A program made the position numbers and the translations under genes. A stretch of DNA of 64,000 nt from Escherichia coli. Lineage in GTDB: Bacteria > Pseudomonadota > Gammaproteobacteria > Enterobacterales > Enterobacteriaceae. Shown piece by piece: positions 17,250-53,328 of this stretch. Within the stretch, counting starts at the first letter, position 1. The number at the start of each line of letters is the position of its first letter. Under the pieces are notes generated by a model. The model had not been told where the DNA came from. It made no database searches and was given only the letters and a program-made list of their open reading frames with translations. The stretch lies in assembly GCF_024223415.1 (NCBI RefSeq), contig NZ_CP100500.1. One strand, written 5' to 3'.

Positions 17250-17302
17250 GCGTTCATTAATTTGATTTATTCGCATCCATCAACGCTTTTAACTCCTCCG
17301 GC

Positions 17303-17978
17303 GTGCGGCACTATAACGACTTCCACAACAAGGAGCCATTTTCTTATACCACTTTCAGTGACCATCCGCTTATGCCACCACCCTCTACGCAACTGTTTGC
17401 AGAGCACCTTCCCACCGAGTGGATACAGCACTTCCTGACGCTTTCTGCTCATGCGACCGTTCGTCGTCTTAACCTGAGCGTGGATGGCGAAGCGGGGATG
17501 AACCTGCTGGCGCCCGCAGCGCTGTCACCCAGGCGCGTCAGCGCGTGGGGGCCGCCCCGGTGGAATGGCTCTTCCGCCAGACCGCACAGACATGGGGCGC
17601 GGAACGTTACCTGAAGGATGACTGGCACGGCCTGCAACTTTTTGCCATTGATGGCGCACAGTTCAGGACACCTGATGAACCCGAGCTGCGTGAATATTAT
17701 GGCTCTGCCAACACATCCACTGAGCGGCAGAGCGCCTACCCCGTCATGCGTCTGGTGGCGTTAATGAATCTGGGAATCACATTCTACTGAATGCCATGAC
17801 CGCGCCTACCAGCGGAGCGATACGGCGTGAGGCAACAAAAGCGGCGTCAGAGATCAGCTTTAAGTTCGCGTTCCAGTTTATCGTGACAGAAATGATAGTG
17901 CTGGGAAACACGGCGTCACCGGGGACTATCCCGAAACGACTGGAGCATCTGCGGGGGCTCTGGAAGTGGTGTTCATAA
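17303..17978 (+). pseudogene. IS4-family transposase remnant (fragmented across three frames, internally deleted)
   Basis: Fragments …WLFRQTAQTWGAERYLKDDWHGLQLFAIDGAQFRTPDEPE… and …ASPGTIPKRLEHL… resemble N- and C-terminal parts of IS4-type transposase as recalled. No intact ORF or terminal inverted repeats were identified. Confidence 0.55.
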
Positions 17979-18702
17979 CAAAACGCCCCCGACCATCAAG
18001 GGCGAGGGCGGTTAAGATATCAAAAACCCGTTATCCTGTGAAACACAGTGCCGCCCCGATTAAGTGAACGGCATTGTGTTTCTGAGGGACCTTAATTTTC
18101 CCTGATTCTCTGACGTTCCTTACCATTGATATTTCCTTCATTCCTCACCAGAGAAATAAAAAATCACTATACTCATCAAAATATGAGATTACCTTTATTC
18201 AGGTGATCACCTTACTATTTTTTACGGAAAATAAATTATGAATAACAAGAAATCACTGACAAACCACCTGTAAAATGTCAATCATTTTAGTTCAATTGCC
18301 TTTGTCATGATTATCTTTTTATCGTCCTGACGATACTATTAACAATTGCAATTTTTATACCCCTCCTGAACAAATAGAAAAGAACTAATATATTCGTTTA
18401 TAATTCTGGTAATCCTGGCATCATACGTTTAAAACTTAAGATATTTATTTTATCATCATCATGGTTCCAGAGACTATTGGTCAGCTGGAAATGCCAGCCT
18501 TTTCGTGCCAGCTATATTTGTCCAGTGTGTCACCCCATCCAAAAATCATCCACATCCTGACGTTACGTTAGATATAGAGAAAACAGGTTGTACTGTGCAA
18601 TATGCAAACCGCATAAGCGAATATAATTTCTAAGTTGATATTGTCTGGCTGTTGGGAGCTAAGCAATATAAATATCGCCAGTTGCCAGAACGGTTATATA
18701 GA

Positions 18703-18732
18703 CCAGGAGCGTTTCGGCTCCTGGCCTGTTTT
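18703..18732. terminator. GC-rich hairpin (ccaggagc-loop-gctcctgg) immediately downstream of the UvrD-like gene
   Basis: Perfect 8-bp stem, T-run on the plus strand and A/T-rich tail on the minus strand. Possible bidirectional terminator closing the four-gene operon. Confidence 0.4.
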
Positions 18733-18742
18733 GGACATATTA

Positions 18743-20857
18743 TCAGTCAGCCACTAATAGCGGACTAGGGACACCAGATGATGAAACAAACAGCCCTTTT
18801 ACGGCACGGGTTGCAGCCACATGCAGTAACGCGCGCTCATTAAATAATGCATCACGCTGTTCAACGGGATCATCGGATGCTAATGCTTTTATTTCCGGCA
18901 CAACGCCTTCGTTAATCCCCACCAGGAACACATACTGGAACTCAAGCCCTTTAATACGGTGCATCGTTGCAACCCGCACGCCAGGGCGTGCATCGCTGTC
19001 ACCGCTATCATTGCCTAAATTAAATGTCTCAATTCCGGCGTCATTCAGTGCTGATGCGTAGCGGTCACAAGCATGTTTAGTACGCGCAGTAATGCAGATA
19101 TCCTGAGAACGAACCTGATTCGCCAGCAATGCCTGAATTTGCTTGACGAGCGTTGCAGCCTCTTCTTTGAAATCTGCCGCATGCGTAATCATGGGCTTTT
19201 CCCCGTGCAGTAATGACAAATAATCATTACTGGTATCCGCTTCGCCATCGAGGTTATCAACCTTCACACCAGTTAACAGCCCAACAGCAAATTGACGCGT
19301 CTCTTCTGTGGTCCGATAGTTAATCTTCAATTTTTTACTGCGACGACCACGGACGTTAATACCACACTGACCAAGAACGACCTTATTGCGATAAATACGC
19401 TGATGCCCATCCCCGACAATAAACAGATCGTTGGGCGACTCGGGAACCAGGCTGCGAATAAGAGTAAATGCCGGGGCACCGATATCTTGAGCTTCATCGA
19501 CCACAATACTGCTATAAGGTAGTTGGACCTGCTTTTCTTTAAACAGAACAATAGCCTCATGCATGGCATCGCCCATTTCGCGCAGTTTGGCACGCGCCAT
19601 TTGTGCTCTGAATTCTTCAAAGACTGGCCAGATTTTCGCCCGTTGAATACGGGATAACGCTGTACCACGTCCAACCCGGCTGACTTTGAGGTATTCCTCC
19701 CGGGTGTAAACCGCATTTGGCTGGACAACGCGTTGCCACTCTTCAGCATAGAAATTATCAGGTAGCCCCAGTTCGGCAGGTGCCTGCTGCAAGGCATAGT
19801 TCCAGCATTTGCGTCGCCCTTCATCGCTGTCGTATACCACGCGGAAATCATAACCGTGGCGTTTTAGTTGGTCGCTCATCCAGGCATCAATGTTAACGAC
19901 GTCAATACGCGCCATCTCTTCTCGCGTACACAACCGCTGGAGATTAGCGCGAATATCTGCCGCCAGGTTACGCGTAAAGGTCGTGAAAAGTACCTTCTTA
20001 CCGGGTTTATCTGCCAGACGCTGAGATAACCACCGCGCACGGTGCATCGCAACAACCGTTTTCCCTGTACCTGCACCGCCCAGTACTCGTACCGGACCAT
20101 TAGCGGGCGACTCCACCAGTTTTCGCTGGCTCGGATGCAGAAATACACGCCATTTTTCTAAAGGCGCATTAAGCATCTGCAACAGCTCCTGTTCATTTTC
20201 AACGACATGGAAGCGACGTTTACTTCGTTCAATCGCCTCCATAAAGTCGTTGGTATCAACAGGCTCATCACGATGATCGTTAAACTCTTCCAGCACTTCC
20301 TGGTAATCCAGCCCTTCTGCCAGCCAGTGCAGAGGTTCCCAGGCTTCTGCTGGCATTATGCTTTCAAGTTGGTTAAGCCCGGCTTCATCGGTAAGCGCCA
20401 TCACCTGATCAATAAAGACAGGCGGCACGCCCAGGGCCAGAATCTGTTCCGCGCTGTAAGCCGCGAAGAGTTTCGGTTTATCAACCACCGCTTCCGGTGC
20501 CGGTTTGATATAGCTAATATCAATAACCTGAATCGCGCCGGTAACTGGGTGAATCGAACAATCATGCCGCCGCGCCCAGTCGTATGCTTCGTCGTGTTTA
20601 TCCACCCACATCAGCATATACAGGGCACCCTGTTCAGGTTTCAGAACAATGCCGCGATAAGTTTGATCGATTCGCACCGAATGGACATTTTTACTGCGCG
20701 CATCGTGGATCTTTTCATAGTTAAGTCCATTACTGGTCGGGTCCTGACGGAATTTGGAGATGAATTCCTGCACCTTTTTTTGCTGTGCTTTTGGGATCCG
20801 CGCGAATGCGCCCAGAAAACCATCAGAAAGTGCCACCTTGGGCGTTTGCACCGTCAT
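18743..20857 (-). CDS. UvrD/PcrA-like superfamily-1 helicase with ~250-aa N-terminal extension (last gene of four-gene defence operon)
   Basis: Walker A VLGGAGTGKTVVAMHR, Walker B IVVDEAQDI, C-terminal motif VATMHRIKGLEFQYVFLVG. The start ATG overlaps the stop of the upstream 2113-aa gene (ATGA). Confidence 0.75.
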   Translation of the reverse strand: MTVQTPKVALSDGFLGAFARIPKAQQKKVQEFISKFRQDPTSNGLNYEKIHDARSKNVHSVRIDQTYRGIVLKPEQGALYMLMWVDKHDEAYDWARRHDCSIHPVTGAIQVIDISYIKPAPEAVVDKPKLFAAYSAEQILALGVPPVFIDQVMALTDEAGLNQLESIMPAEAWEPLHWLAEGLDYQEVLEEFNDHRDEPVDTNDFMEAIERSKRRFHVVENEQELLQMLNAPLEKWRVFLHPSQRKLVESPANGPVRVLGGAGTGKTVVAMHRARWLSQRLADKPGKKVLFTTFTRNLAADIRANLQRLCTREEMARIDVVNIDAWMSDQLKRHGYDFRVVYDSDEGRRKCWNYALQQAPAELGLPDNFYAEEWQRVVQPNAVYTREEYLKVSRVGRGTALSRIQRAKIWPVFEEFRAQMARAKLREMGDAMHEAIVLFKEKQVQLPYSSIVVDEAQDIGAPAFTLIRSLVPESPNDLFIVGDGHQRIYRNKVVLGQCGINVRGRRSKKLKINYRTTEETRQFAVGLLTGVKVDNLDGEADTSNDYLSLLHGEKPMITHAADFKEEAATLVKQIQALLANQVRSQDICITARTKHACDRYASALNDAGIETFNLGNDSGDSDARPGVRVATMHRIKGLEFQYVFLVGINEGVVPEIKALASDDPVEQRDALFNERALLHVAATRAVKGLFVSSSGVPSPLLVAD

Positions 20858-23800
20858 TTGTCACCTCCGGACAGATGTTGCAATGTATTTTCGTCAATTG
20901 GCCCGAATGCAACGTGCCAACCTCTGGTTGTGAATAATGGAATAAATTCTTGATTATCAATAATCAATGCCCATTTTTGTGATGGCCAGGCGAGATCGGC
21001 TTCCGCAATAATTTCACCTTCATCATTTTGCAATTCGTAGCCGAGAGTCGGCGCAGAGAGAGAATGAGACTGAAGCAACGCGATCTCTTCAGCGCTTAAT
21101 AAGCCAAACTCAATAATCTCAGCCCAACTCTCATCAGTCTCTGGTACTGCCTCTGGCGTTGCCGAAACTTTAGTGTCAACGCTTTCCTGCGGTAAATGCA
21201 CGGCTTTACGGCTGGTAAAGGTCATATCCGGCAGGAACTGTAACAGGTTTACCAGTCGCCAGAAGCCATTGAGTCCCGCTTCATAACCGTCATCCTGCGT
21301 ATAGCGATCGTCAAAACAGATATGCAAACGCAGCCAGCTGCGCATTTGTGCGACGCTGGTCGTCGGTTTAATGGCTTGTTGTGGCAACACCGAAGCCAGC
21401 TCAATAAATTGCTGCGATGAGTTACAGCTATCGAGTAAACCACCAAAGACAAACGGTTCGTCTGGCAAAAGCTCTGCTAGCCGCCAGGCTGGCGCGTTTT
21501 CCTGCATTTCATAGGCATACTTTTGTTTCGTTCCCGCGTCCTGTGACTTCTTCACATCCAACCACACCCAGGCATGTGCAGCAGCCATTCTCTGCCATAA
21601 CTGCGTTCTTCCGCCCGGATCGGCGAGATAATCCAGCAGCAGTGCAAAACTGTTGCGTTCCCGGAACGACGCTTCAAGGGCCGCAAAGTTGGTATCGTGA
21701 AACAGGTTATAAAACTTAGGCTGTTTCATATCCGGGTTATGCCCAAGTCCCAGGACATCCTGAACATGTTTAAGCCCAGGCTCTTTGAGATCGGCCCACG
21801 TGACTGTCCACACCCAGAAATTACCGCTATCCCGAATCGCCTGGCGTTTTTGCACATCCTCTGCGACGCTATTTTTGTGGAACGCAAAGCCATCAAGGAA
21901 AATAGCCACCGGTTTAATGACATCAGACTGCATAAGCGGATATAGCACGTAATCCGGGCGACAAGGGATCCCCACCGCCTCTTTAGCGCCTAAATCCACC
22001 TGAGCTTTAAGATGCCAGCTCATCATCGGTTCGCTGCGGGTGTTAATAATCCACCCAGCGCCCTGATGCGCGTAACTGCGACTGACAATCAGGTTTTTAT
22101 TTTCTTGCAGGCAGCTAATAAACCGTTTTTCCAGCTCACTGCCCATCATGGCTTCGAGGGAAATGTTTTTGATGGAATCAATTACCCGTATCGAATCTCT
22201 TGCCTGCAAAATTTTCGCCAGCAAGAGACGCGCCTGATCGCGGGAGACATACTTCATGCGCCCACGGTCACGGTAAGCGTAAACGCAACGATAACAACCA
22301 TCTTTATGCGTATCATTGTTGCAACTGCATTCCACTATTGCCTGATAGGCCAGTTCAAGTAATTTCAGCAAATTGTCGGGAGTGCGCATCAGCTCTTTAA
22401 GAGAACCAGTTCCCCCCGGGACGGTATCGTAAATCACCAGATACTGCCTCCAGGATTCGCCTTCATTTTCCGGCTCGCGGTACACAACGCCTTTCAGGTG
22501 ATCGACATTCCCCTTGAAGTAATGTTTAAGGCCGAGCTGGATCGCCGCCCCAAGAGAAGCCTCCACGACACGGTCATTACTGTAACTGCTTACCGGGAGC
22601 AGAATACGCAACGCTTCTGACTCCAGCTGGCGATAGAGATAGAGATAATCTTCGAACTTCGCCTTTTCCGGTTCCGTGCGATATTTGCAGCTCAAATCAT
22701 GACGTGGTTCATGATCGCGAGGACGCTGCACCATGCCGCACCCGAGGCAAACTTTAAACCCGGTTCGCTTCTTCGCTTCTCCGGCAATCATCAACTCATT
22801 GGCATCATCCGCCATTTTGCCGAAGTTGATATCCCGCAGGGTGACTTTGCTTAAAAATTCAAAACCAAACGGAACTTCGCCTTCCTCAATCGCGTATGCC
22901 GCCGATACATCTTCTTTTTCGAAACTAACCAATAGCTGACGCTGGAAGAAAGCAGGTTCACGGCTGTCGCTATCGTCGCTGATCTGGCTATCACGTGCGC
23001 TGGCGCGGGCATAAACCTGGCGAAGTTTCAGCAGCGTGGTTTTTTGTCCGGCATCGGCCCACCCCGGTGTGCCACATTTCGGGCAATATTTATGCTGGTC
23101 GCCCGTCTGGTCGATATTTTCGCTGTAGTTACAGTGGCTACAGATACGCCAGTTCTCCGGCTCAGAGACCTTCAGGTCTATCTGCTCAATTTCAACTTTA
23201 TGCCCACCGGCATAGAAATTATTCAGCGGAGCCAGCTCAGCCAGCGCCGTTGATGCCGGGCGTTCATATTCGAAAGTGGTGTTTTGATATTCACGCGCTT
23301 CCCCGCCTTCTTTACGCCGCCAGAGCACAGAACGTAACGTAATACCGGCTTCCGGGAAGGCGTAGTTAGGCAGCAGACCTTCATCCGTGAGGAAATTCAG
23401 CGTTTGCTTATTGTTGATTTGATTGACCAGCGCCATCAGCGCCTGCCGTTCTGAAGTCAGTTCGCGCATATCGCTGTCAAAGTTTTGATCGCGCGGCGCG
23501 TTCTCCAGTTTATCGATGCTGCGCTTGAGTTTATCGATGCGTGAGCGCAAAGATTTGCGATCTTCCACCAGCAGTTTTAACGCTTCTTCGATACGCTGCA
23601 CCAGCGAACGTTGCCCTGGCGCGCCCTGAAGATAAGACAACAGCTGTTGGCGAGTTTCTGCGGCAAGATCGGGGAAGATCGCCGTAAATTGTGCAGCAAT
23701 CTCCGCATGATGCTGTTCGATATATCGCAGTAAGTTATACGGAAAACCCGATTTACGCCCGAACTCCAGCTCATCCAGCATCTGTTTGACGTTTTTACAG

Positions 23801-26800
23801 ATAGCGGATTCTGGTACACCGGTTTTCACCCAGTTATCCATACAAAAAGCTGCCAGCTGGCGTTCGAGAATAGCCGTTGCATTGAGGAAGACGCCAGGAG
23901 CCTGCACCTGGCCCTGCATCATCTCCAGCGGTTCTTCAAAGAAAAACTGATCGTGCGGGTTCCCTTCTGCCACGGTAATGTTTAACGCGTTACCATCTTT
24001 ACGACCGGCGCGACCAATACGCTGCAAGTAGTTGGCCTGAGCAGGTGGGACAGAACAGAGTAAAACGGTGGAAAGATCGCCAACGTCAATACCCATCTCC
24101 AGCGTCGGTGTTGCCGACAACAGGTTGATATTCCACGGTTGGTTGCCGCGGTAGAACGATTTTTCGGTGGCTTCGCGATCTTCACGGCTAAGCAGCCCCG
24201 TGTGTTCTGCGCCCTGTACGCGCGCGATGTCCATGTTCTCCCAACGCCAGGTCGCCGTATTGTCGACTTCCTGGTAACGACCTTCACAACGTAAAGAGAG
24301 ACAAGGCGCATTACGCCACTGCCAGCCTTGATCGGCCGGAGCCCGGACAACCTCACGGCAACATGAACAATTAAGCTGAACGACGTCACGGCTCACCACC
24401 AGCGCCGAAGGCACCAGTCCCCAGGCTTCACGCCCTTTGGTGTCAAAATCTTTTACTACTCCGGCTATTTTCAACGCCGTAAACAGGCGTCGTAACACTG
24501 TTTCCGCAACGCTACTGATAAACAGATTATTGCCGTTACTCAGCGTGCGATTGATCCAATGCTGATACCAACTGGGGTTAGACTTCGCGCCAATCAGGCG
24601 ATGGAAACCATTAATTTTTTCAAACGACGCATAAGCCGGTTTACGCGTTTTCGGACCGATAGAAGGCATATAGCGCGAGGTACGCTCTTTTTGCGTCATC
24701 ATAAAGGTCGTGCCATCACGGCGATAACTTTCGAACGCCGGATGCATAACGGCCCCGGCCTGGCGTTGATACCAGATAACCCCCAGCGCCAGGTGCGCGA
24801 CCTGCTCGACGCTCACACCGGACATCTCATCACCCAGCTCTTCACAAAGCTGTTGATGCAGGGCGGTAATTGCCGGATTAAAGCGTTCTTTATCCACTCC
24901 GGCAACGGCATAACCGGTGGCTTCCAGCGTACGTCCGATACGCGCGCGCAGGGTGAATTCGCTGTACACCTCCCAGTCGAGGCGCAGGGAAACCAGCTCC
25001 GGCAGATCGGAGTTCTCCGCCAGTTTGCCTTCATTTTTCAGCATCTGATAATCATTCAGCCACTGCATATTTGGTGCGATGAAGTTCGCTGCAAAATGAG
25101 CATCGTCCGGTGAACGTTCACGCGTTTGTTGGCAAACACGCGCCGCGAACGCATCCAGCGGTAATGTCTCTTTTTCGCCAAGAACACTGGCGATTTGCCC
25201 ACGAATCATCAGCGGCCAGGTACGGGCAGTAAAGAAGCTGGCACGATGCGCGGCGTCTTGTACCGAGTCAGAAAACGTAATCAGCTTTTTATGTTCGTTG
25301 AACTGGCTGCCATAAAGCTGGTGAATCATCACCGCCGACAAACTGGCAGCCCGTGACCCCAGGATCGAAATCCCCTGTTTGCTGTTGCAGTACGGGCATT
25401 CATTAGCAAACTCCAGCTCGTCCTTACGCTCTTTGAGCATATCCGGGATCAGTACCTGCAACAGTTCCGTATGACCGCAATGTCCACACTGGACGCTGGA
25501 CTGTCGGTTCAGTTTCAGACAGGTAGGACACAGTTTCTGGTGTGCGCCACTGACCGCTTTTTCGTTGTTATCCGGGAAAGCAAGGACGATGGAGCGTCCT
25601 TTTTCAAAGAACTGGCGATAAATGCCGTCGAGGTCTGTTTCCAGCTGAACGCTTTGCCCATGACGCAGGCTGGCCCAGCCAGTTGCGTGGCAGTCACGGC
25701 AGTGGATAACCGGCAAATAGTGTTCGCGATCTTCCACCGCCACATCATCGGCAAACACCAGTCGGGGCGTTTTCGCCACGCTGGCGACCAGACGACGCAT
25801 CTCACGAAGCCACAACTGGGAGCGCAGTTGCACAAACGGCAGCACCGGACGCGCTTTCTTCGCCTGGAGACGTTTTTGCCGATCGTGTTCCGTTTCCGGT
25901 ACTTCGAGACGTGCCTGTGCGATCAGCGCCAGAATGCTTTGCAGCACGCGTCGGGCATGGTCGGCGCTTTCTGCCAGCATGACCTGGAGATTTTCCAGAC
26001 ACTCTCGTTCAGAGAGGATCCCGCCTTGCAGATCATGGAGTAAGACATGCATCACGCTGTGGCGGCGTAACAGTGACCCCAGCGCAATACGCTTTTCACG
26101 CCCGTCGTCGCTCTCCAGATCGTCCGGGAGTTGCAAGTCGCTGTCGGGGAACCACAAAGGGATTTGCCCGTTAAGATACGCTACCGGGGTAGCGTAACTC
26201 TGCGGGTCCAGGGCCGAAGCGACCTCCGGCCCCGGATACTGACTGTACGCAATGGCGTAATCCTGCAAGTACTCCGCTGCCGTGTAGCGATCTTCGCGAA
26301 TAACGGCGTCATCGGTAAACGGCTGGTCAAAGATTGTTTTTGCGTAATCGAGCAGTTGCCCCAGCTCGTCGCCGACGGTAGCTGATGTCCCGACGCAGGC
26401 GAATCGTTGGTTATCTACACCTATGTGATGCTTCAGACGTCGCACCAGACAGGCCAGATCCGACCCTTGCGCGCCATCAAACGTATGCAATTCATCCACG
26501 ACCAGGTAACGCAATGAACCGGGCTGGTTGTAACGCCAGAGCGGCTGATCGCCAGGGCGCATCAGCAGGTAGTCGAGCATTTTGTAGTTGGTCAACAGGA
26601 TGTCCGGCGGGCTTTCGCGCAGCGTGTGCTTGCAGGTAATGACCTTTTCTGCCGACATTTTTTTGCTGGGTTCGATTTCGCTGTCGCCGACAAACAGGCC
26701 GACGGTCACCTTGCCATGCAGTTGTGTATCGCTGGCGATGGTTTTGGCGAAACGGCTGGCCTGATCGGTTGCCAGGGCGTTCATCGGGTAGATGATAATC

Positions 26801-38693: not shown

Positions 38694-38755
38694 TAAGTGG
38701 TTAACTAACGATTTCCAGTGAGCCTGCTCAGGTTGTATTGCCGGAAAGACTGCGA

Positions 38756-44500: not shown

Positions 44501-44883
44501 TAACCCGAAGCTTGTCCCAGGTTTCTTATCTTTCTTTTCCAGTAGCGAATGCCATCATTAACCAGCTTCTGTCGATGAACATACGGAACTTTCCAGTTAA
44601 TAGAATCTAAAATTGTGTCCCATTTAGGGTGTCCGACCGTATGAGTCCGGCGGATAAACTCTGCGGCATATATGCTAAATAGAACATCGCTATAGGAAAT
44701 GAATATCGTTCTTGGATAACTACGGGGGGCATATGTACGCAGTAGTTCTGCCAAACTTTCGTACTCTGTATCAGTACAACGGTAAGCATATAACGCCCGT
44801 CCATCAGCTCCGGATAATGAACGGCGACTAAAAAACATGTTAAGCCATTGCAAAAGTGGGTTAACTGGAGTTTTCACAAGCAA
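41524..44883 (-). CDS. 1119-aa protein of unknown function (DruH-like partner of the giant helicase)
   Basis: Large ORF with no motif recognisable by eye. Its stop overlaps the start of the 925-aa helicase ORF by ~10 nt, implying co-translation. Position and size fit the partner gene of Druantia type III. Confidence 0.5.
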   Translation of the reverse strand: MLVKTPVNPLLQWLNMFFSRRSLSGADGRALYAYRCTDTEYESLAELLRTYAPRSYPRTIFISYSDVLFSIYAAEFIRRTHTVGHPKWDTILDSINWKVPYVHRQKLVNDGIRYWKRKIRNLGQASGYLHTLACEGGLPIRMIENESGYLITYFRRIYQALRGQSSQYPAAKIAQELGDTIPVTMQNELVYEIAGEFCETLCRLLSEHPPQSSDPVSALRKLSPDWHLKLPLVLPEANAAEIVRRLLSQSSEIRSASSLQVERIWVDVDDSWYCDARFRFPATMRTEQLTSLFECHIQPEQTRLIISGKWKNGGARLAMLSRYEQQDWRVELLPIAMQKLSGADAMAEISLSLHEGPILLGHTIPKGGYELTEELPWVFEAMNESESQLKLVGMGSVSSRLNALFISLPKNSHLDISGEGEFDIPRLLKNSERSLTKISGVFSVVLHDGAVCTIRTQQLYDSAIEYYIKSTEVELVKSDYPVHRAWPKIGWKKDLQYGIVPEKELFWRSIRSGNNAWYSVASEMPKGQIEVRRIVNDEVLFSGKVVVLPADFDINIIPESAQQGIIMLSGITDTRIDKYLNNEKVTLKSDYSQNECAIYYNSSLMLENTVDLRVSWKDGSNLKLLLPKPVSGGRFVTNDGSVHFDGVASIAHLHGIDAELLTISCAGRGYLNIELLDENPVAEKFRYLHADLPLLSGRNDKLQQISLYENYNLLNAMLACAWNSNSTLCVDFYSDRFGKDKATLNIKRYDGSFIEHDQGLLVDIKNSVVFPANRIDELVVDAISLKNPGLHISLLKKDEFAYDLSALNVQDSPWLIVGKLDGTARIAPVIKWMLPVLQTNDLLLNALCEADPEQRKKNFNELIFEIDNNPLQNYCCLLTEYIKKYKMNNGLSLLDLDLFRGISSNYRVVVQLLISSCLSGDSDTIYDIQEELPFSWGWIPVSIWKDVFQKCWTYLEKQINDKTLALHILQPFIAFMNHRAHIDRRLAPIANMLLTYSESLPTGCDVLPTVSREQFNEAKQMLLRNPDSFGRISIFPKELWSSAITPELKSVFNKLWIEDKYHSRLEKRFNLMLVAALLTQKDNNLIHQLSALFEFHYQQAPQQLGVIYQYYFEQAGVCH

Positions 44884-45094: not shown

Positions 45095-46747
45095 ATGTTA
45101 GCGCAGCTTTTTGAGCAGTTGTTTCAATCGATAGACTCTACACTGATCACCAATATTTTCATCTGGGCTGTTATATTCGTATTTTTATCAGCGTGGTGGT
45201 GTGACAAAAAAAATATACATAGTAAGTTTAGAGAATATGCTCCAACCTTAATGGGGGCATTAGGTATTCTGGGTACTTTCATTGGTATTATTATTGGTTT
45301 ACTCAATTTTAATACCGAAAGTATTGATACCAGCATCCCCGTATTATTAGGTGGCCTAAAAACAGCATTCATTACAAGCATTGTAGGTATGTTTTTTGCC
45401 ATTTTATTTAATGGAATGGATGCTTTCTTTTTTGCCAATAAACGAAGTGCGTTAGCAGAAAATAACCCTGAATCTGTTACACCTGAACATATCTATCATG
45501 AATTAAAAGAGCAGAACCAGACTCTGACTAAATTAGTCTCGGGTATTAACGGTGATAGTGAAGGTTCTCTTATTGCTCAAATAAAATTACTACGTACTGA
45601 GATTAGCGATTCCTCGCAGGCACAATTAGCTAATCACACTCATTTCAGTAATAAGCTTTGGGAACAACTTGAACAATTTGCAGATCTAATGGCAAAAGGT
45701 GCTACAGAACAAATTATTGATGCTTTGCGACAAGTCATTATTGATTTTAATCAAAATTTAACTGAACAGTTTGGTGAAAACTTTAAAGCTCTTGATGCCT
45801 CTGTAAAAAAACTTGTTGAGTGGCAGGGAAATTATAAAACGCAAATTGAGCAGATGTCAGAACAATATCAACAAAGTGTCGAGTCCCTGGTTGAAACAAA
45901 AACTGCGGTTGCAGGGATTTGGGAAGAATGTAAAGAAATTCCTCTGGCTATGTCTGAACTGCGTGAAGTGCTTCAGGTGAACCAACATCAAATCAGCGAA
46001 CTCTCCCGCCATTTAGAAACCTTTGTCGCCATCCGCGATAAAGCTACAACCGTATTACCTGAAATACAGAACAAAATGGCTGAAGTGGGTGAACTGCTGA
46101 AATCCGGAGCTGCAAATGTTAGTGCATCTCTTGAGCAAACCAGCCAGCAAATACTTCTTAATGCAGATTCAATGCGCGTTGCCCTGGATGAAGGTACCGA
46201 AGGATTCAGACAATCGGTTACCCAAACACAACAAGCATTTGCCTCGATGGCACATGATGTCAGCAATTCCTCCGAAACCTTAACCAGCACGTTAGGTGAA
46301 ACAATTACTGAAATGAAACAAAGTGGTGAAGAATTCCTGAAATCACTAGAGTCGCACTCGAAAGAATTGCATAGAAATATGGAACAAAATACGACGAATG
46401 TGATTGATATGTTCAGTAAGACTGGTGAAAAGATTAACCATCAACTATCCAGTAATGCCGATAATATGTTTGATTCAATCCAGACATCATTTGATAAGGC
46501 AAGTGCAGGGCTGACTTCTCAAGTCAGAGAATCAATTGAAAAATTTGCTCTATCCATCAACGAGCAGTTACATGCTTTTGAGCAAGCAACTGAACGTGAA
46601 ATGAACCGTGAAATCCAATCATTAGGTAATGCTCTGCTTTCAATCAGCAAAGGTTTTGTCGGTAACTATGAAAAACTTATTAAAGATTACCAAATAGTTA
46701 TGGGGCAGTTACAAACATTAATTTCTGCTAATAAACATCGCGGGTAA
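45095..46747 (+). CDS. zorA: Zorya ZorA-like (MotA/ExbB-like membrane domain with long coiled-coil tail)
   Basis: N-terminal TM helices (…LMGALGILGTFIGIIIGLLNF…, …FITSIVGMFFAILFNG…) then ~400 aa of heptad-rich low-complexity sequence. The start is taken at ATG 45095 (AGG RBS); the ORF track uses an upstream GTG at 45038. Confidence 0.75.
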   Translation: MLAQLFEQLFQSIDSTLITNIFIWAVIFVFLSAWWCDKKNIHSKFREYAPTLMGALGILGTFIGIIIGLLNFNTESIDTSIPVLLGGLKTAFITSIVGMFFAILFNGMDAFFFANKRSALAENNPESVTPEHIYHELKEQNQTLTKLVSGINGDSEGSLIAQIKLLRTEISDSSQAQLANHTHFSNKLWEQLEQFADLMAKGATEQIIDALRQVIIDFNQNLTEQFGENFKALDASVKKLVEWQGNYKTQIEQMSEQYQQSVESLVETKTAVAGIWEECKEIPLAMSELREVLQVNQHQISELSRHLETFVAIRDKATTVLPEIQNKMAEVGELLKSGAANVSASLEQTSQQILLNADSMRVALDEGTEGFRQSVTQTQQAFASMAHDVSNSSETLTSTLGETITEMKQSGEEFLKSLESHSKELHRNMEQNTTNVIDMFSKTGEKINHQLSSNADNMFDSIQTSFDKASAGLTSQVRESIEKFALSINEQLHAFEQATEREMNREIQSLGNALLSISKGFVGNYEKLIKDYQIVMGQLQTLISANKHRG

Positions 46748-46753: not shown

Positions 46754-47461
46754 ATGGATAAGATTATAGGGAAACAATTACCTAAAAAAGATCAAGATAA
46801 TGAACATTGGGTATCCATGTCAGACCTAATGGCAGGGCTGATGATGGTTTTTATGTTCATATCTATTGCTTATATGCACTACGTACGTATTGAAAAAGAA
46901 AAAATTAAAGAAGTTGCCGTAGCCTACGAGAATGCTCAGTTACAGCTTTATAATGCTCTGGATATTGAGTTTGCAAAGGATTTACAAGACTGGGATGCAG
47001 AGATCGATAAACAGACTCTGGAGGTTCGATTTAAATCACCGGATGTTTTATTTGGCTTAGGAAGCACAGAGCTAAAACCAAAGTTTAAACTCATTCTTGA
47101 CGACTTCTTTCCTCGCTACCTAAAAGTTCTAGATAATTATCAGGAACATATTACTGAAGTCCGCATTGAAGGTCACACAAGTACTGACTGGACAGGAACA
47201 ACGAATCCTGATATTGCTTATTTTAATAATATGGCACTATCGCAAGGTCGTACACGTGCAGTATTACAATACGTTTATGACATAAAAAATATCGCGACAC
47301 ACCAACAATGGGTTAAAAGTAAATTTGCCGCAGTAGGTTATTCATCTGCACATCCCATTCTTGATAAAACCGGCAAGGAGGATCCTAATCGCTCTCGTCG
47401 TGTCACCTTCAAAGTTGTAACAAATGCCGAGTTGCAGATTAGAAAGATTATTCAGGAGTAA
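46754..47461 (+). CDS. zorB: Zorya ZorB-like (MotB-like membrane anchor with OmpA-type peptidoglycan-binding domain)
   Basis: N-terminal TM (…LMAGLMMVFMFISIAYM…) and OmpA-like motif …RIEGHTSTDW…NMALSQGRTRAV…NRSRRVTFKV. Confidence 0.75.
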   Translation: MDKIIGKQLPKKDQDNEHWVSMSDLMAGLMMVFMFISIAYMHYVRIEKEKIKEVAVAYENAQLQLYNALDIEFAKDLQDWDAEIDKQTLEVRFKSPDVLFGLGSTELKPKFKLILDDFFPRYLKVLDNYQEHITEVRIEGHTSTDWTGTTNPDIAYFNNMALSQGRTRAVLQYVYDIKNIATHQQWVKSKFAAVGYSSAHPILDKTGKEDPNRSRRVTFKVVTNAELQIRKIIQE

Positions 47462-47464
47462 GAG

Positions 47465-48568
47465 ATGAAATTATCTATCGACCTTTCAGAACTTATTCAA
47501 TTAGGGAAGAAAATGTTACCAGAAGGAGTCGATTTTTTTCTGGATGAATCCCCTATTGACTTTGATCCTATAGATATTGAGTTATCCACGGGTAAAGAAG
47601 TTAGTATCGAAGATCTTGACCCTGGTAGCGGGCTTATCTCTTATCATGGCCGCCAGGTTCTTTTATATATTCGGGACCATTCAGGGCGTTATGATGCGGC
47701 TATCGTAGATGGCGAAAAAGGAAAACGTTTTCATATTGCCTGGTGCAGAACTCTTGATGAAATGCGCCATAAAAATCGATTTGAAAGGTATCATGCAACT
47801 AACCGCATAGATGGTTTATTCGAAATTGATGATGGTTCAGGTCGGAGCCAGGATGTTGATTTACGGGTATGTATGAATTGCCTCGAACGACTTAATTATA
47901 AAGGAAGTATTGATAAACAACGAAAAAGAGAGATTTTTAAATCATTCTCATTAAATGAGTTTTTTTCAGATTATAGTACCTGTTTTCGTCATATGCCTAA
48001 GGGTATCTATGACAAAACAAATAGTGGGTATGTCGAAAACTGGAAGGAAATATCTAAAGAAATACGAGAAAAGGCCAATTATGTTTGTAATGATTGTGGC
48101 GTGAATTTATCAACCGCCAAAAACTTGTGCCATGTCCATCATAAAAATGGCATCAAATATGATAATCACCATGAAAACCTTCTTGTTCTGTGCAAGGATT
48201 GCCATCGAAAACAGCCCCTCCACGAAGGTATATTCGTTACCCAAGCTGAGATGGCTATCATTCAACGTTTACGTTCCCAACAAGGGCTATTAAAAGCAGA
48301 ATCCTGGAATAAAATATATGACCTGACTGATCCATCAGTGCATGGTGATATTAATATGATGCAACATAAAGGCTTTCAACCTCCTGTTCCTGGGTTAGAT
48401 CTTCAAAACTCAGAACATGAAATTATTGCAACCGTAGAAGCTGCATGGCCAGGCCTTAAAATTGCAGTTAACCTTACTCCCGCCGAAGTCGAAGGATGGA
48501 GAATATATACCGTGGGTGAGCTGGTTAAAGAAATACAAACCGGAGCCTTTACGCCAGCAACTTTGTAA
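47465..48568 (+). CDS. zorE: Zorya type II effector ZorE-like HNH endonuclease
   Basis: HNH motif CNDCGVNLSTAKNLCHVHHKNGIKYDNHHENLLVLCKDCH. It follows zorB by 3 nt. Confidence 0.7.
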   Translation: MKLSIDLSELIQLGKKMLPEGVDFFLDESPIDFDPIDIELSTGKEVSIEDLDPGSGLISYHGRQVLLYIRDHSGRYDAAIVDGEKGKRFHIAWCRTLDEMRHKNRFERYHATNRIDGLFEIDDGSGRSQDVDLRVCMNCLERLNYKGSIDKQRKREIFKSFSLNEFFSDYSTCFRHMPKGIYDKTNSGYVENWKEISKEIREKANYVCNDCGVNLSTAKNLCHVHHKNGIKYDNHHENLLVLCKDCHRKQPLHEGIFVTQAEMAIIQRLRSQQGLLKAESWNKIYDLTDPSVHGDINMMQHKGFQPPVPGLDLQNSEHEIIATVEAAWPGLKIAVNLTPAEVEGWRIYTVGELVKEIQTGAFTPATL

Positions 48569-48603: not shown

Positions 48604-48753
48604 AAGATAAATAAAACTTCCCTGATTTGTGACTCAAATTACAAAAGTAGTTTATGGCATAACTTGTCTATCTTTATGGTGTAATAGGTATAAAGGTATA
48701 TGCTATGGTTCGCCTCATACTTAAAACTTCCCTCATACGGGTGAAGGTTAAAG

Positions 48754-49032
48754 CTTTGTAGACAGGAGACAGTCACAATGAATAAAACAATAAATTGATG
48801 TCGCACGCGCCGATGGGCATGGCGGGTAATGTAACTTTTGTACACAACGGCAAGGCTTATGTTACTGGCGGTGTTAACCAGAACATCTTCAATGGCTATT
48901 TTGAAGATCTCAACGATGCTGGAGAATATTTAGCAGCTATAGACAAGATCAATGCCTATTATTTCGACAAAAAAGCAGAAGATTATTTCTTCAATAAGTT
49001 TTTGTTGTCTTTTGATCCCTCAACACAGCAAT
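48754..49032 (+). pseudogene. diverged nanM remnant (first ~37 bp of nanM fused to an internal ~240-bp nanM segment), preceded by a nanC-promoter-like GGTATA repeat at 48687-48700
   Basis: 48754-48790 matches 15079-15115 (gtagacaggagacagtcacaatgaataaaacaataa). 48791-49032 matches 15460-15700 at roughly 90 percent identity by eye. Same orientation as the intact nanM. Confidence 0.8.
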
Positions 49033-49107
49033 GGATCTTCACTTGCAGGCTTGAACAGCAGAAAATTTGCGAGCATGATCGCAATTATTTCACTGCCAGG
49101 GATATCA

Positions 49108-49980
49108 ATGGCTTCCAGTAAATCGCTACAGCAGGCAATTGCCAACATAAAAATCTGGCACAAGGGTGAACAGCGCGCGCCGCATAAGCCATTGTTATTG
49201 CTATACGTATTAGCGGGATACCTGAATGGACATCCACGCCTTTTCGATTATGGATCGGAAATCTACGAACCTCTGCACAGTTTACTGGAACGTTTTGGGC
49301 CACAGCGTTCACAGTACCGACCTGATATGCCGTTCTGGCGATTACAAGGCGACGGATTCTGGCAATTACACAATGCCGAGCTTTGCTCAACAGCAGGGAG
49401 CAGCCGACAACCGCCAGTGAAGGAACTGAACGAATACCACGTTGCAGGCGGTTTCGATGAACAGCACTACGCCCTGGTAACCGGCAATAAAAAACTCATC
49501 AATACTCTGGCGCAACAGATACTCGAAGCGCACTTCACCGAGAGTATTCAGGAAGAAATTGCTGACGAGCTGGGTTTTGATCTCCAGCAAATCCGTAAAC
49601 AGCGCGACCCGTTATTTCGCAAAAATGTATTACGCGCTTATAACTACCAGTGCGCGATATGTGGCTTTAATATGCGCCACGACGACACCACCGTCGCGCT
49701 GGAAGCGGCGCATATAAAATGGAAACAGCACGGCGGTCCTTGTGAAATTCCTAATGGCCTGGCGCTTTGCGCAATTCACCATAAAGCCTTTGATAAAGGA
49801 TCGATTGGCCTGGATGAAAATATGCGGGTACTGGTCTCGGATGCGGTAAACGGCGGAGGGATCGTTGAGAGATTATTCTGGGATTTTGACGGGAAAACTA
49901 TTGCGTTGCCGCAGGTGCGTAAAAATTACCCTTATGAGGGGTTTGTGGAGTGGCATCGGGAAGAGGTTTTTAGGGGGTGA
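49108..49980 (+). CDS. HNH endonuclease with unidentified N-terminal domain (candidate modification-dependent restriction enzyme)
   Basis: C-terminal HNH motif YQCAICGFNMRHDDTTVALEAAHIKWKQHGGPCEIPNGLALCAIHHKAFD. The start is taken at ATG 49108 (MASSKSLQQAIANIKIW) with AGGGA RBS, because the ORF-track start at 48952 lies in the nanM remnant. Confidence 0.6.
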   Translation: MASSKSLQQAIANIKIWHKGEQRAPHKPLLLLYVLAGYLNGHPRLFDYGSEIYEPLHSLLERFGPQRSQYRPDMPFWRLQGDGFWQLHNAELCSTAGSSRQPPVKELNEYHVAGGFDEQHYALVTGNKKLINTLAQQILEAHFTESIQEEIADELGFDLQQIRKQRDPLFRKNVLRAYNYQCAICGFNMRHDDTTVALEAAHIKWKQHGGPCEIPNGLALCAIHHKAFDKGSIGLDENMRVLVSDAVNGGGIVERLFWDFDGKTIALPQVRKNYPYEGFVEWHREEVFRG

Positions 49981-50024
49981 GGTTGATAACTATCGCAGTA
50001 TGTTCAATATTGCTGACATAATCA

Positions 50025-50204
50025 GTGCAGGATCTTGCCGCTAGTTTACAACTCGCCTTCGATAGCGGCGCAAAACGTGTTCTGTTGCCGATATCCTCGG
50101 CTATGGATATTCCAACAGTTCCGGCAGAGTTGTTTACCAAGTTTCAGGTAAGTTTTTACTCAGAACCGGTTGATGTGGTTTATAAGGCGCTGGATGTGAA
50201 TTAA
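50025..50204 (+). pseudogene. possible 3-prime remnant of a Lon-like protease gene (BrxL-like C-terminus)
   Basis: Short frame encoding …GAKRVLLPISSAMDIPTVPAELFTKFQVSFYSEPVDVVYKALDVN*, which resembles the extreme C-terminus of Lon-family proteases from memory. No upstream coding sequence remains. Confidence 0.3.
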
Positions 50205-50537
50205 CACATTCCTCAGCTTATTTACAAAAGGATTATTCCCATTTGATATAATATCAGTGCCAATTTACTTTTTTCAATGGAATATATCTCGGCTAAATAA
50301 CAATAAAACTTATCGCTAATTGATTAAATAAACAATTTTCTAATTCATTTCACCACCTTTGATATAGAAATTGATGGTGTTGTCGCTGCCATTGCTTATG
50401 GTGATGATAAAATCCACGTTTCTGGATCGTTGCGTAGAAAATCATCACTACCTTGATATTTTGATGCGATATGATCATACCGTTCCGTAGTACCAATTTC
50501 AATTTCAGGCTAAACCCCAACATTAAAAAAATTAGAG

Positions 50538-50579
50538 TTATTCACTGATTATATTATCAATAATATAATCAGTGAATAA
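50538..50579. repeat. 42-bp near-perfect AT-rich palindrome (20-bp arms, 2-nt centre)
   Basis: ttattcactgattatattat-ca-ataatataatcagtgaataa; all 20 arm positions pair. It lies ~25 bp downstream of the stop of the 682-aa minus-strand ORF. Confidence 0.8.
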
Positions 50580-50602
50580 CATGGACTATATAATAAATTG
50601 CT

Positions 50603-52651
50603 CTAATCATTTCCCTTACGAATATATGGGCCAAAAGCCCAAGAATCATAATAAGGGTGATGGACTAGTTTTTCATTAAATCGAACACTATAAGTTAATT
50701 TTTTTATATTTTTACGTACAGCATTAATACTGGGCAAAGAGGAAAGATAATCTATAAACTTATCGATAGTGATTTCCCCTTCGCAACACTCAAACCCATC
50801 AATGATATTTTTCGCCATTTTTCCATTTTCATTTGTTTGATATATCACTCCAGGTATTCGTTGAAAAAAACTAGATAATGCATATTTGTCCGCTACATAT
50901 GTATCATCCACATGATATTTCCCACCGAGCATAGTTGTAGTAACAATAAGCTTATACACACCTTTGGGTTGCCATGTTGATGGTAGTTCGAATTCTTTAA
51001 TGATCACATCAAGATGATTAAGATAATGTTCAGAAATTCGATTTATTTGTTGAAAATAAGAACGCATAAATTTATTATTATGATCATGTATTAATGAGCT
51101 ATCTCCAACGATGTTACACATTTGCTGATAGTATTTACCATAATATATTGGTTGACCATTTGATTTTAGTTCTGTAAAAATCAAACAATCATCCAGGAGA
51201 ATCACGCAATCGCACTGATAATTAGCATGAGCATCAATTGGAGAAGCTTTAATCCCCGCATCACGAACTTGTTTTATAAATTGTTGCTCATGAAATCGCC
51301 CTTTACTTGCTTGAGAAATTTTTTTGGAACCAAATAATGACATTAGAGAGCGAGTCACTGAGCTATTTGCTATTAATGCAGGCATTAAGCATAAACCGTC
51401 CATACAGGGAATAAATGGGCAATCATTAAGATCATGTGATTTTGAATTGAAGGTAAAATAATCTATCAGTTTTTTTGCTGCATCTGCTGCAATCCCCTTA
51501 CGTTGAAAGAATGATAACCAACTCTCACGGCTTTTTATGATCAGCCAGCGATCCAACTGTAGGGGTATAGGTTTTGTCGATGAAAATCTTTTGCTCATTT
51601 CTTCTTTAGATAACTCGACTAAACATTGATAAGCGTGCACCCAATTAAATAATGATATATTCCCATATTCTTCATGAAGGTCATCAGGAGACATATTTTC
51701 CAACTCGCTTAGATGAAATGAGCTAAAAACGCCATCAGAATTTAAGTAAGATGGCATATGATCCTTTACCCAACTATTTAGATGAAAATGTTTGTTACTA
51801 AATTCATGAACTTCGCTATATAGATGTGACGCTCTCATCATTAGTCTATTTCTTGCAATCTCATAATCTCGGTATAAACAAAAACTATCAACCTCAAGAG
51901 AGTAAATGTTATTATCCAATTTTGTAAATACTGCACTACTTAGTCTGAAAAAGTCTCTTACTCTGCTTAATGAGTCAAAAACATTCCACTCATTAAGGTA
52001 CCCTCCCATTGAAAGCAAGGTTTGTTTATTCACACAAGAAGTTAGTTTCAATGGCTCATGAGTCCGTAAATAAGAAAATATTCTTCCGGTGTAATTGGCT
52101 ACCTCATCAAATGCCCTATCGATAACTCGAAAATATTCGATATCAGGTTCAGCATGAATATTAATATTTTCAGAAACGATAAATAATGGAAAAATCCTCT
52201 TCATTTTTTTAGGATCATTGACCACAACCAAGGATGATAATGATGATAAAAACATCTCACAAAACATGATGAGATTAAGTATTAATGCATGTGATTTTTT
52301 TGTATTTTTACGCCAAATACCAGCACATTTTGTAGCCGCAAAGAAAGAATTATTTATATCATGCATAATTTTACATTGACTCTCGAACTCAGAAATTAGT
52401 TCAATGTTATCAGGAAATGAGTTTACTAGCTCATTAATACATTTTTTGAATGTATTGTTATACTCAACTTCAGTCTGAACTGAAAATCTATTATAATAGA
52501 TGGAAGATATTCTCAGCACATCCAAGGCGATATCTATACTAATATCATCTCTTTTTATGTACTCACAAAAAAAAGAACAAAACTGTTTCGGGTCGTTAGC
52601 AAGATTACTAATTCTAGTGGTATCATAAACTTTTTCCATTTTTCCATACAT
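50603..52651 (-). CDS. 682-aa hypothetical protein, very AT-rich, possible C-terminal PD-(D/E)xK-like patch
   Basis: Long uninterrupted ORF in the most AT-rich stretch of the window, adjacent to leuX. No recognisable P-loop. C-terminal segment …YQCDCVILLDDCLIFTELK… has the hydrophobic-D…E-x-K spacing of PD-(D/E)xK nucleases (weak, by eye). Confidence 0.6.
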   Translation of the reverse strand: MYGKMEKVYDTTRISNLANDPKQFCSFFCEYIKRDDISIDIALDVLRISSIYYNRFSVQTEVEYNNTFKKCINELVNSFPDNIELISEFESQCKIMHDINNSFFAATKCAGIWRKNTKKSHALILNLIMFCEMFLSSLSSLVVVNDPKKMKRIFPLFIVSENINIHAEPDIEYFRVIDRAFDEVANYTGRIFSYLRTHEPLKLTSCVNKQTLLSMGGYLNEWNVFDSLSRVRDFFRLSSAVFTKLDNNIYSLEVDSFCLYRDYEIARNRLMMRASHLYSEVHEFSNKHFHLNSWVKDHMPSYLNSDGVFSSFHLSELENMSPDDLHEEYGNISLFNWVHAYQCLVELSKEEMSKRFSSTKPIPLQLDRWLIIKSRESWLSFFQRKGIAADAAKKLIDYFTFNSKSHDLNDCPFIPCMDGLCLMPALIANSSVTRSLMSLFGSKKISQASKGRFHEQQFIKQVRDAGIKASPIDAHANYQCDCVILLDDCLIFTELKSNGQPIYYGKYYQQMCNIVGDSSLIHDHNNKFMRSYFQQINRISEHYLNHLDVIIKEFELPSTWQPKGVYKLIVTTTMLGGKYHVDDTYVADKYALSSFFQRIPGVIYQTNENGKMAKNIIDGFECCEGEITIDKFIDYLSSLPSINAVRKNIKKLTYSVRFNEKLVHHPYYDSWAFGPYIRKGND

Positions 52652-53328
52652 CCTATTGTCTAAATTACTATAAAACTAGCCACTTAACTAATAATTATAA
52701 ATTTCATCTTTTACACCTTGCATTTTTATAACCAATGAAATCTACGACAAGCAACTGATGGATAATCCGATATTGGTCGCATTTAATGGCATGGTAGCAA
52801 AGTTTTCATCACATACCTCCTTTGCACCAGAATAAACGCCAGAGATCTGAAATTGCGAGTACACTACAGAAATTGTACTGCCGGTCCCATCAGCATAAAA
52901 CCATAGTTACACAGGTAATCATCATTATTCGCCAAGATAATAAATATTATTCGGTAGAATAGCGTTCTCAGGTGGTCAGTATAATTGTCTTCAACAAGAT
53001 GTCTGCGCATCTCGTCTGCTAGCCCTACATAACTGCTCTCGACCGAAACTATTTATTGAATGTTCACCAAGGTGGGCGTGGAGACAAAATGACGTCTTTT
53101 GATATTAGCTACCTGAGCCACATGGTCAAAACGTTCAAGTAGCATAGCGAAACCACCCTGCCCACGTAATGTGGACGATGCAGCTTCCAGCCAGAGCAAA
53201 CTTGGGACCATCGACTACAAAATGAAGAATACTGAACTGCTTTTCTGGCAGGCCTATATACTGCACGGATATGGGTGATTTCAGACACAAAAAAAGCCGC
53301 CCTTGAGCGACTCGATTTGCATACGGTG

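Follow-up and report, generated by a model that had tools for sequence, protein, structure and literature searches.

How does a large anti-phage array come to lie near a tRNA gene when no integrase accompanies it? The question is raised by a 64,000-nucleotide stretch of the Escherichia coli contig NZ_CP100500.1 (assembly GCF_024223415.1), hereafter the window, in which an initial annotation placed an integrase-less defense island of ~36 kb at leuX, where K-12 carries a prophage-like element. The answer developed here starts from what can be observed directly, namely the gene content, the junctions, the absence of an integrase and of a leuX repeat, the population frequencies, and an empty attachment site. 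These data make it probable that the block is a nonmobile composite anti-phage island in the hypervariable leuX–nanS interval, an allele of SpLE6/OI-172 in defense hotspot #37, and that it was built in two layers. The first layer would be an older backbone of ~4.3 kb by leuX, comprising a phosphorothioate (PT) endonuclease gene, a BREX stump, a NERD nuclease gene (orf682), a 625-bp stretch, and the leuX terminator. The second would be a 31.7-kb insertion that carries ARMADA II, Druantia III, and Zorya II and is bordered by a dead insertion sequence (IS) of the IS4 family on the left and by a nanC′/nanM′ scar on the right (Table 1).

The nan block ends at 17249 and homology to K-12 resumes at 53277, 52 bp beyond the leuX 3′ end, so that the variable interval spans 17253–53276; the interval proposed initially, 17250–53328, was thus upheld except for its right boundary. 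It is bracketed, as the initial annotation had it, by nanCMS on one side and leuX-ahr-idn on the other, and its contents (ARMADA II, Druantia III, Zorya II, the PT endonuclease, and orf682) bear out the reading of at least three defense systems plus nuclease-like orphans. The base composition is also as heterogeneous as had been judged by eye, with a mosaic GC fraction ranging from 0.33 to 0.53: 0.50–0.53 in ARMADA, 0.49 in druE, 0.40 in druH, 0.38–0.39 in Zorya, 0.50 in the PT endonuclease gene, 0.33 in orf682, and 0.45–0.51 in the flanks. In counts over 5426 complete E. coli genomes, with presence defined as a match to at least 80% of the query, the array segment 16000–40999 is found in 512 genomes (9.4%) and the leuX-proximal segment 49900–53420 in 330 (6.1%); the same gene content in most E. 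coli genomes, which would have spoken against accessory status, was not found. The interval thus combines presence in a minority of genomes, conserved flanks, and atypical composition, as accessory genomic islands do, and is confirmed as accessory DNA of the leuX–nanS interval of the E. coli chromosome. The mosaic composition fits the stepwise assembly that was suggested at the outset, and the IS4, nanC′/nanM′, brxL, and HNH stumps confirm it.

The layers are revealed by comparison with genomes that have no array. IHE3034 (phylogroup B2) aligns to window positions 3870–17304 and 49035–53348 with only 84 bp in between, and the inserted array occupies 17305–49034, between nanS and the PT endonuclease gene and 4.3 kb from leuX. 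The description "at leuX" therefore stands for the interval as a whole but not for the three-system array, which is not attached to the tRNA gene. Directly after the nanS stop codon lies the end of an HNH endonuclease gene, which has 35 codons in IHE3034 and 16 in the window, where it is cut by the IS4 relic; both IHE3034 and strain W2-5 annotate the longer form. Deletion cannot turn the window, with its shorter HNH relic, into the array-free state, a polarity that argues for entry of the array into an existing backbone rather than integration at leuX. The IS4 relic itself forms the left junction, IHE3034 homology stopping at 17304; RefSeq annotates it as "transposase domain-containing protein, frameshifted" and the Sakai record as "ISCro3 Family: IS4 partial."

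The right junction is of a different kind. Here, the final 11 bp of nanC, intergenic DNA, and the first few nanM codons are followed by ~245 bp from within nanM, altogether 288 bp that lie 31.7 kb from the intact nanM. This sequence is 92–95% identical to the native nanM, harbors an internal deletion, and ends at about codon 200; RefSeq lists it as the pseudogene "N-acetylneuraminate epimerase, partial." All of the array-carrying genomes that we examined have the nanM′ fragment. This junction is a recombination scar and not an attachment (att) site. The array would have entered probably by recombination through a second nan copy, the IS4 element, or both, and would have spread later by descent and by homologous recombination in the flanks. 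The 31.7-kb block shows no transposon-like ends, that is, no terminal inverted repeats, no target duplication, and no repeat longer than 10 nt shared between the junction regions.

The distribution of the junctions is consistent with this order of events. The direct nanS/HNH′/PT-endonuclease junction of array-free genomes is present in 1296 of the 5426 genomes and also in W2-5, in which a membrane-protein gene replaces the brxL stump and orf682. On the array-bearing side, matches across the left junction are found in 512 genomes and matches to a zorB-to-PT-endonuclease query that includes the right junction in 511, although the 80% coverage threshold by itself is no proof of an intact right junction in each of the 511. 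That each junction region is matched in ~510 genomes agrees with the junctions having arisen once.

The leuX end of the interval was searched for traces of an integrating element. A tblastn search of the window with IntB, ECs_5242, ECs_5253, the P4-type integrase of IHE3034, and one serine recombinase returned a best E-value of 0.7. The translated search of 52652–53328 for integrase remnants was negative by tblastn and by comparison of its small open reading frames (ORFs) with PHROGs, as was a distant blastn search of this segment against the 5426 genomes. No phage genes were found in 17253–53276. Among hallmark genes of SPIDER phage-like elements (the name is from PMC13192584), the window contains no integrase, AlpA-like excisionase, HUH Rep, or CbtA/RadC-type module. 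The exact 25-mer of the leuX 3′ end occurs once in the window, in leuX itself; a 16-mer leuX probe has two approximate matches with three mismatches each, one of which lies within the interval on the opposite strand and is at chance level; and no exact repeat of at least 12 nt of the leuX/terminator region is present in the interval. The early statement that integrase, leuX 3′ repeat, and phage structural genes are missing was thus correct. Tested against the features of a tRNA-integrated island or prophage-like element, the interval has none of the three: no integrase by the tRNA gene, no distal repeat, and no displaced downstream DNA.

Indeed, leuX is followed directly by its own terminator, a segment common to K-12; in strains with integrated elements the terminator is found on the far side of the distal leuX 3′ repeat. 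In IHE3034, NCTC10444, and W2-5, integrase-bearing elements separate leuX from the non-coding stretch (in W2-5, from its counterpart) and are bounded by a 20–24-bp repeat of the leuX 3′ end. The IHE3034 element is an integrase-encoding P4-like satellite that lies past a 20-bp repeat and before the real leuX, while NCTC10444 has a CbtA/YeeU-type island behind a 24-bp repeat, homology to the window stopping 24 bp inside leuX, and W2-5 has a CbtA/YeeU-type island ahead of leuX. In O157 Sakai, SpLE5 sits behind a 25-bp leuX repeat and its neighbor is the integrase stump ECs_5253, not the 625-bp stretch. Because the integrase-bearing elements of these relatives sit at the leuX 3′ end behind repeats, the corresponding site in the window is empty: the leuX 3′ end is an attachment site that is used in other strains and unoccupied here, and the window is without an integrase because no tRNA-integrating element is currently at leuX. 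This uninterrupted leuX junction is rare, being found in 104 of the 5426 genomes. The ~680 bp of DNA beside leuX had been taken as standing where an integrase would normally be. It is non-coding, consisting of the 625-bp stretch and the 52-bp terminator, but it is not the site of a lost integrase, as the elements of relatives insert between the stretch and leuX. Across E. coli genomes, we also observed two classes of junction at leuX, with homology starting either from the tRNA 3′ end, when an element is integrated in the tRNA gene, or, as in K-12 with its intB, past the terminator, 52 bp farther downstream. The two start points suggest two different junction types for leuX islands.

The array is also found elsewhere. 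ATCC 8739 has it in a tRNA-Phe island (13126–47240 of the retrieved locus), as a copy that matches window positions 18231–49053. This copy retains the nanM′ scar together with 18 bp from upstream of the PT endonuclease gene, ends at an IS5 element (ISKpn26), and is bracketed by two IS1 copies. Because the scar and the 18 bp of leuX-locus DNA were carried along, the tRNA-Phe copy descends from the leuX-locus arrangement, and the array would have moved at least once, most likely by an IS-mediated route. The shared scar qualifies the inference, published in PMC12458937, that separate element types delivered the array to the two contexts. GDSC2BY4G has the same IS5 insertion point (on the 49053 side), with a chromosomal rearrangement at the IS5, and was rejected as a separate array context. 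More tentatively, and as somewhat less than an even prospect, the array may be a cassette for which homologous or IS-mediated recombination, rather than a tRNA-targeting integrase, provides movement within E. coli tRNA hotspots and from one to another, because its right end bears the second-nan scar and the ATCC 8739 copy has that scar and the 18 bp of leuX-locus DNA between IS elements. Separately, and just as tentatively, orf682 may encode a new single-gene NERD-nuclease defense protein.

Several points weigh against a two-layered, nonmobile island. Its history is drawn from a handful of genomes rather than from a phylogeny, and the 31.7-kb block has neither terminal inverted repeats nor a target duplication that would point to a specific insertion mechanism. 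Sliding identity comparisons of flanks and block were uninformative on recombination tracts, and thus flank-versus-block identity cannot separate spread by recombination from vertical descent. In O157, a leuX repeat precedes the truncated P4-type integrase ECs_5253, which adjoins the PT endonuclease gene; this agrees with a published interpretation of the entire block as a single immobilized tRNA-integrating element. Moreover, ARMADA elements at tRNA-Leu are described as "frequently, but not always immobilized" (PMC12458937), and so intact, integrase-bearing versions that carry the array may exist elsewhere. Finally, the druE frameshift considered below lies in a homopolymer and is possibly a sequencing error.

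Several of these points favor a different history, in which the whole 36 kb is a single degraded tRNA-integrating element of the SPIDER/SpLE6 type that integrated at leuX and later lost its integrase end and distal repeat by deletion. In addition to the same cargo lying next to a truncated integrase and leuX repeat at its leuX-proximal end in O157, PMC12458937 (Fig. 5B) proposes successive waves of insertion and immobilization at tRNA-Leu with integrase vestiges, and this Druantia clade is often on such elements (PMC13192584). We nevertheless consider this history unlikely. Array-free genomes contain the same 4.3 kb that separates array and leuX, and in them it adjoins nanS directly. Their HNH relic is longer than that of the window, so that the array-free state cannot have been derived from the window state by deletion. 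In addition, leuX is followed directly by the terminator, as at an unoccupied site, the right junction consists of part of nanM instead of an att site, and neither an integrase trace nor a repeat is present.

It is far less probable still that the interval remains mobile by means of an unrecognized recombinase such as orf682 or the IS4-family element. The occupants of hotspot #37 are mostly without a detectable mobile element yet highly variable (PMC10121019), and a Pectobacterium homolog of orf682 lies beside an integrase. However, the IS4 gene is frameshifted and internally deleted and the block has no terminal repeats, orf682 has a predicted restriction-endonuclease rather than recombinase fold and its Izhakiella homolog is solitary between housekeeping genes, and the same junctions recur in ~510 genomes, as expected of a fixed locus. 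The notion that the interval is ordinary core chromosome, for which one might cite the 5031 of 5426 genomes that match part of the nanS/PT-endonuclease junction query, is refuted by the presence of the array in only 9.4% and of the leuX-proximal segment in only 6.1% of genomes, and by the mutually different leuX–nanS contents of K-12 (which has KpLE2), O157, IHE3034, and W2-5, and can be set aside as having virtually no likelihood.

Table 1. Features of the interval between nanS and leuX in window coordinates
Feature	Position	Strand	Evidence or remark
HNH endonuclease gene relic, last 16 codons, directly after the nanS stop	17257–17304	−	tblastn of 35-aa IHE3034 relic, 94% over 16 aa
Decayed IS4-family transposase gene (ISCro3-like), frameshifted, with internal deletion	17303–18060	+	NCBIfam NF033592, 41.9 bits
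armD, UvrD/GajB-like helicase with small RelE-like N-terminal domain	18743–20857	−	PADLOC GajB, 2.5e-36; PHROG helicase, 6e-51
armC, 2113-aa YprA/DruE-like DExH helicase with MZB (DUF1998)	20854–27195	−	PADLOC DruE3, 348 bits
armB, 1643-aa PglX/DrmMI-like N6-adenine methyltransferase	27195–32126	−	PADLOC REase_MTase_IIG, 960 bits; DrmMI, 191 bits
armA, SNF2/BrxHII/DrmD-like helicase, intact	32129–34987	−	PADLOC DrmD, 333 bits; NCBIfam DISARM_DrmD, 350 bits (cut-off 610)
druE, Druantia III helicase-nuclease, frameshifted	35211–41524	−	PADLOC DruE3, profile positions 4–865 and 907–2051 of 2055
druH, Druantia III, STY4851/ECs_5259 family	41524–44883	−	PADLOC DruH3 PDLC00041, 2549 bits, full length
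zorA2 (MotA-like)	45095–46747	+	PADLOC ZorA2, 1000 bits
zorB2 (MotB-like)	46754–47461	+	PADLOC ZorB2, 346 bits
zorE (HNH)	47465–48568	+	PADLOC ZorE2, 586 bits
nanC′/nanM′ scar of second nan locus	48748–49035	+	blastn vs. K-12, IHE3034, O157, and the window's own nanM
Phosphorothioated-DNA-binding (SBD-HNH) restriction endonuclease	49108–49980	+	NCBIfam NF045808, 438 bits (cut-off 180)
brxL relic, last 59 codons of BREX Lon-like protease gene	50025–50204	+	NCBIfam TIGR02653, 82.5 bits, profile positions 617–675 of 675
orf682, 682 aa (RefSeq start 52639, 678 aa)	50603–52651	−	NERD-type PD-(D/E)xK nuclease, predicted
Non-coding stretch, 625 bp	52652–53276		Always travels with orf682
leuX downstream terminator region, GC-rich hairpin and T run	53277–53328	−	52 bp, backbone common to K-12
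leuX, tRNA-Leu(CAA)	53329–53413	−	ARAGORN and Rfam

The largest component of the array, the four-gene operon at 18743–34987, is by its gene content and order assigned as ARMADA II (armABCD). The definition and experimental tests of this system are given in PMC12458937. All four genes lie on the minus strand and match the respective PADLOC profiles in the strict type II order, BrxHII/SNF2, PglX-like methylase, YprA-like helicase, and GajB-like helicase. The YprA-like helicase ArmC harbors the DUF1998/MZB domain (Pfam MZB PF09369, 7.3e-13, residues ~1549–1638) together with Helicase_C, and is nearest to DruE, its best PADLOC matches being DruE3 and DruE1. Its O157 ortholog, WP_000937974.1, is named as the type II representative in PMC12458937. 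A Pfam scan of the C-terminal 1113 residues of ArmC gave no match to the C-terminal Vsr-type PD-(D/E)xK nuclease domain listed for type II. In ArmD, a protein likewise described in that paper, a RelE-like domain is fused to the UvrD/GajB-like helicase, the GajB profiles matching from residue 240 on; the PHROG match to a RelE-like toxin at residues 8–92 is weak (E = 0.003).

The same operon was considered as DISARM class 1; both have a DrmD-like SNF2 helicase, a DrmMI-like N6-adenine methylase, and a DUF1998-containing helicase. This assignment was rejected. DISARM has separate DrmA and DrmB proteins where the window has one DruE-like fusion of helicase and DUF1998, the window operon contains no PLD protein (DrmC) and adds the UvrD/GajB-like fourth gene, and the DrmD score of 350 is below the 610 cut-off. 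The K-12 gene yjhR was also tried as a possible armD stump and rejected, as tblastn shows no similarity. Within armB, a strain-variable segment of ~1.1 kb (~27800–28900, GC 0.42) has 74–79% identity to O157 and ATCC 8739, compared with 98–99% for the rest of the operon. The segment has the look of an exchanged target-recognition module; such a swap in the methylase would alter the protected motif. In the otherwise near-identical NCTC10444, armA (retrieved locus 17563–20420) is frameshifted by a 1-bp deletion at window position 34386, and the window armA is intact; the window and NCTC10444 thus have one broken defense gene each, druE and armA, respectively.

Next to ARMADA II, druH and the ~2100-aa druE are adjacent and codirectional, as in Druantia type III. 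However, the window has no intact druE reading frame, a requirement for function. It is split into ORFs at 35211–38693 (1160 aa) and 38756–41533 (925 aa) by a 1-bp deletion at ~38829 in an A run (38820–38835, minus strand), which is A7 in the window and A8 in NCTC10444 and other strains; druE is a single coding sequence of 6315 bp in four relatives, PapRG-06-5, NCTC10444, O157, and ATCC 8739. The deletion may be a genuine inactivating mutation, may have arisen by phase-variable slippage, or may reflect a sequencing error in the homopolymer. Since the gene is frameshifted, Druantia III is, if the deletion is real, probably inactive in the source strain. Divergent from druHE, zorA2, zorB2, and zorE form one operon, as in Zorya type II, and RefSeq annotations of near-identical genomes use the same names.

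The functions of these systems would be those of published orthologs, to which the window genes are 98–100% identical in DNA sequence. In experiments on such orthologs, ARMADA II and Druantia III act directly on unmodified phage DNA without killing the cell and reinforce each other, and Zorya II adds protection, chiefly against podoviruses. ARMADA II protects directly, without cell death, and requires the helicase ATPase motifs and the methylase NPPW motif (PMC12458937). In Druantia III, DruH is likely the sensor and DruE a helicase-nuclease that acts on replication intermediates with single-stranded DNA (PMC13192584). Synergy of Druantia III has been reported with Zorya II (PMC13192584) and with ARMADA II (bioRxiv 10.1101/2025.09.22.677730 and PMC12458937).

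The leuX-proximal backbone begins with the PT endonuclease gene, whose NF045808 match is full-length (profile positions 2–284 of 284), placing the product in that family; it should cleave phosphorothioate-modified DNA. The gene adjoins nanS directly in IHE3034 and W2-5. In K-12 MG1655, a stump of it (residues 8–96; retrieved locus 42249–42514) persists between nanS and yjhR, so that the gene predates KpLE2 at this position. It is followed by the brxL relic, a partial pseudogene in RefSeq. From the BREX type 1 set (brxA, brxB, brxC, pglX, pglZ, and brxL) only this end of brxL is present, and the stump is the sole remainder of a BREX operon formerly located between the PT endonuclease gene and orf682.

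Searches of orf682 against Pfam, PADLOC, NCBIfam, and PHROGs gave no family match. Its assignment as a nuclease comes from structure comparison and alignment of remote homologs: the confidently predicted structure, which has a large helical N-terminal region, has the defense protein Upx as its best solved match, and the modeled fold is of the restriction-endonuclease type, not that of a recombinase. The 625-bp stretch that accompanies orf682 is present in 332 of the 5426 genomes and carries no annotated feature in any of them. Rfam detected no known non-coding RNA in the interval besides the leuX tRNA, and ARAGORN finds leuX as the one tRNA gene of the window. A Rho-independent terminator of leuX has been described (PMC2811032).

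The island itself is already known, having been published, named, and experimentally characterized. The Sakai record lists ECs_5253–5264 as "phage-like element SpLE6," 34,148 bp (PMC7430833), in tandem with SpLE5 at leuX. SpLE6/OI-172 shares with the window nine defense genes in the same order and orientation at 98–100% DNA identity, the IS4 relic beside nanS, the nanM′ fragment, and the PT endonuclease. Where the window has the brxL stump, orf682, and the 625-bp stretch, O157 has a transposase stump and the truncated integrase ECs_5253; it also has SpLE5 as a further integrase-bearing element between the ECs_5253 end and leuX, contains another ArmB variable segment, and retains an intact druE. 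The array was tested as OI-172 in EDL933 and in ATCC 8739, and deletion of OI-172 genes showed that the strain owes most of its phage resistance to them, with synergy between Druantia and ARMADA; the Zorya–Druantia–ARMADA trio was found in 426 of 3792 E. coli genomes (bioRxiv 10.1101/2025.09.22.677730). NCTC10444 differs from window 14567–53352 at only 13 positions over 38.8 kb.

The interval has the same chromosomal position as defense hotspot #37 (Hochhauser et al. 2023), which is anchored by leuX (EcoSal Plus review, PMC12707154), is occupied in 97% of genomes by 31 system types with Zorya enriched, and has no detectable mobile element in 68% of its occupants (PMC10121019). That study was a survey and did not dissect the junctions and relics of this allele. 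The immobilized ARMADA islands at tRNA-Leu described in a 2025 preprint (PMC12458937) comprise the same array at the same tRNA gene, and the model given there, in which later active elements integrate at tRNA-Leu beside an immobile ARMADA island, is exactly matched by NCTC10444 and IHE3034. Our junction analysis differs from the literature on SPIDER elements and immobilized islands in placing the array in an older backbone and not against leuX. The K-12 occupant was correctly named as KpLE2 in the initial annotation. It shares with the window the leuX–nanS interval, the 52-bp leuX terminator, and the PT-endonuclease stump beside nanS, contains an intB pseudogene, IS2, IS4, IS30, IS911, IS1, fec, nanXY, yjhGHI, sgc, and topAI-yjhQ, and lacks ARMADA, Druantia, and Zorya.

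To the left of 17249, the window contains the fim operon, fimE, fimB, and nanC-nanM-nanS, and to the right of leuX, ahr, idnK, idnDOTR, yjgR, and lptGF. Identity to other strains drops to 93–95% at 10001–11000, the fimA region, compared with 98–99% elsewhere in the fim operon, which fits allelic variation of fimA, the major fimbrial subunit gene. In O157 (retrieved locus 14814–17465), ahr joins yjgR directly, without the idnK-idnDOTR genes that the window has at 54632–59677.

What is added here to a known island is modest and of specialist interest: the empty leuX site, the two layers with their relics, the tRNA-Phe scar, the ArmB variable segment, the druE frameshift, and a candidate NERD nuclease. 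In enterohemorrhagic E. coli, resistance to a broad panel of phages is due mostly to the orthologous island, a point of relevance to phage therapy. The island is a textbook example of a defense hotspot whose contents change without an obvious vehicle, and the locus can help to test how large defense arrays spread without an integrase. The empty leuX site, the IS4 stump, the nanC′/nanM′ scar, the brxL stump, and the tRNA-Phe scar of ATCC 8739 provide markers for reconstruction at population scale, and the predicted NERD-nuclease gene orf682 by leuX is a candidate for a further defense gene.

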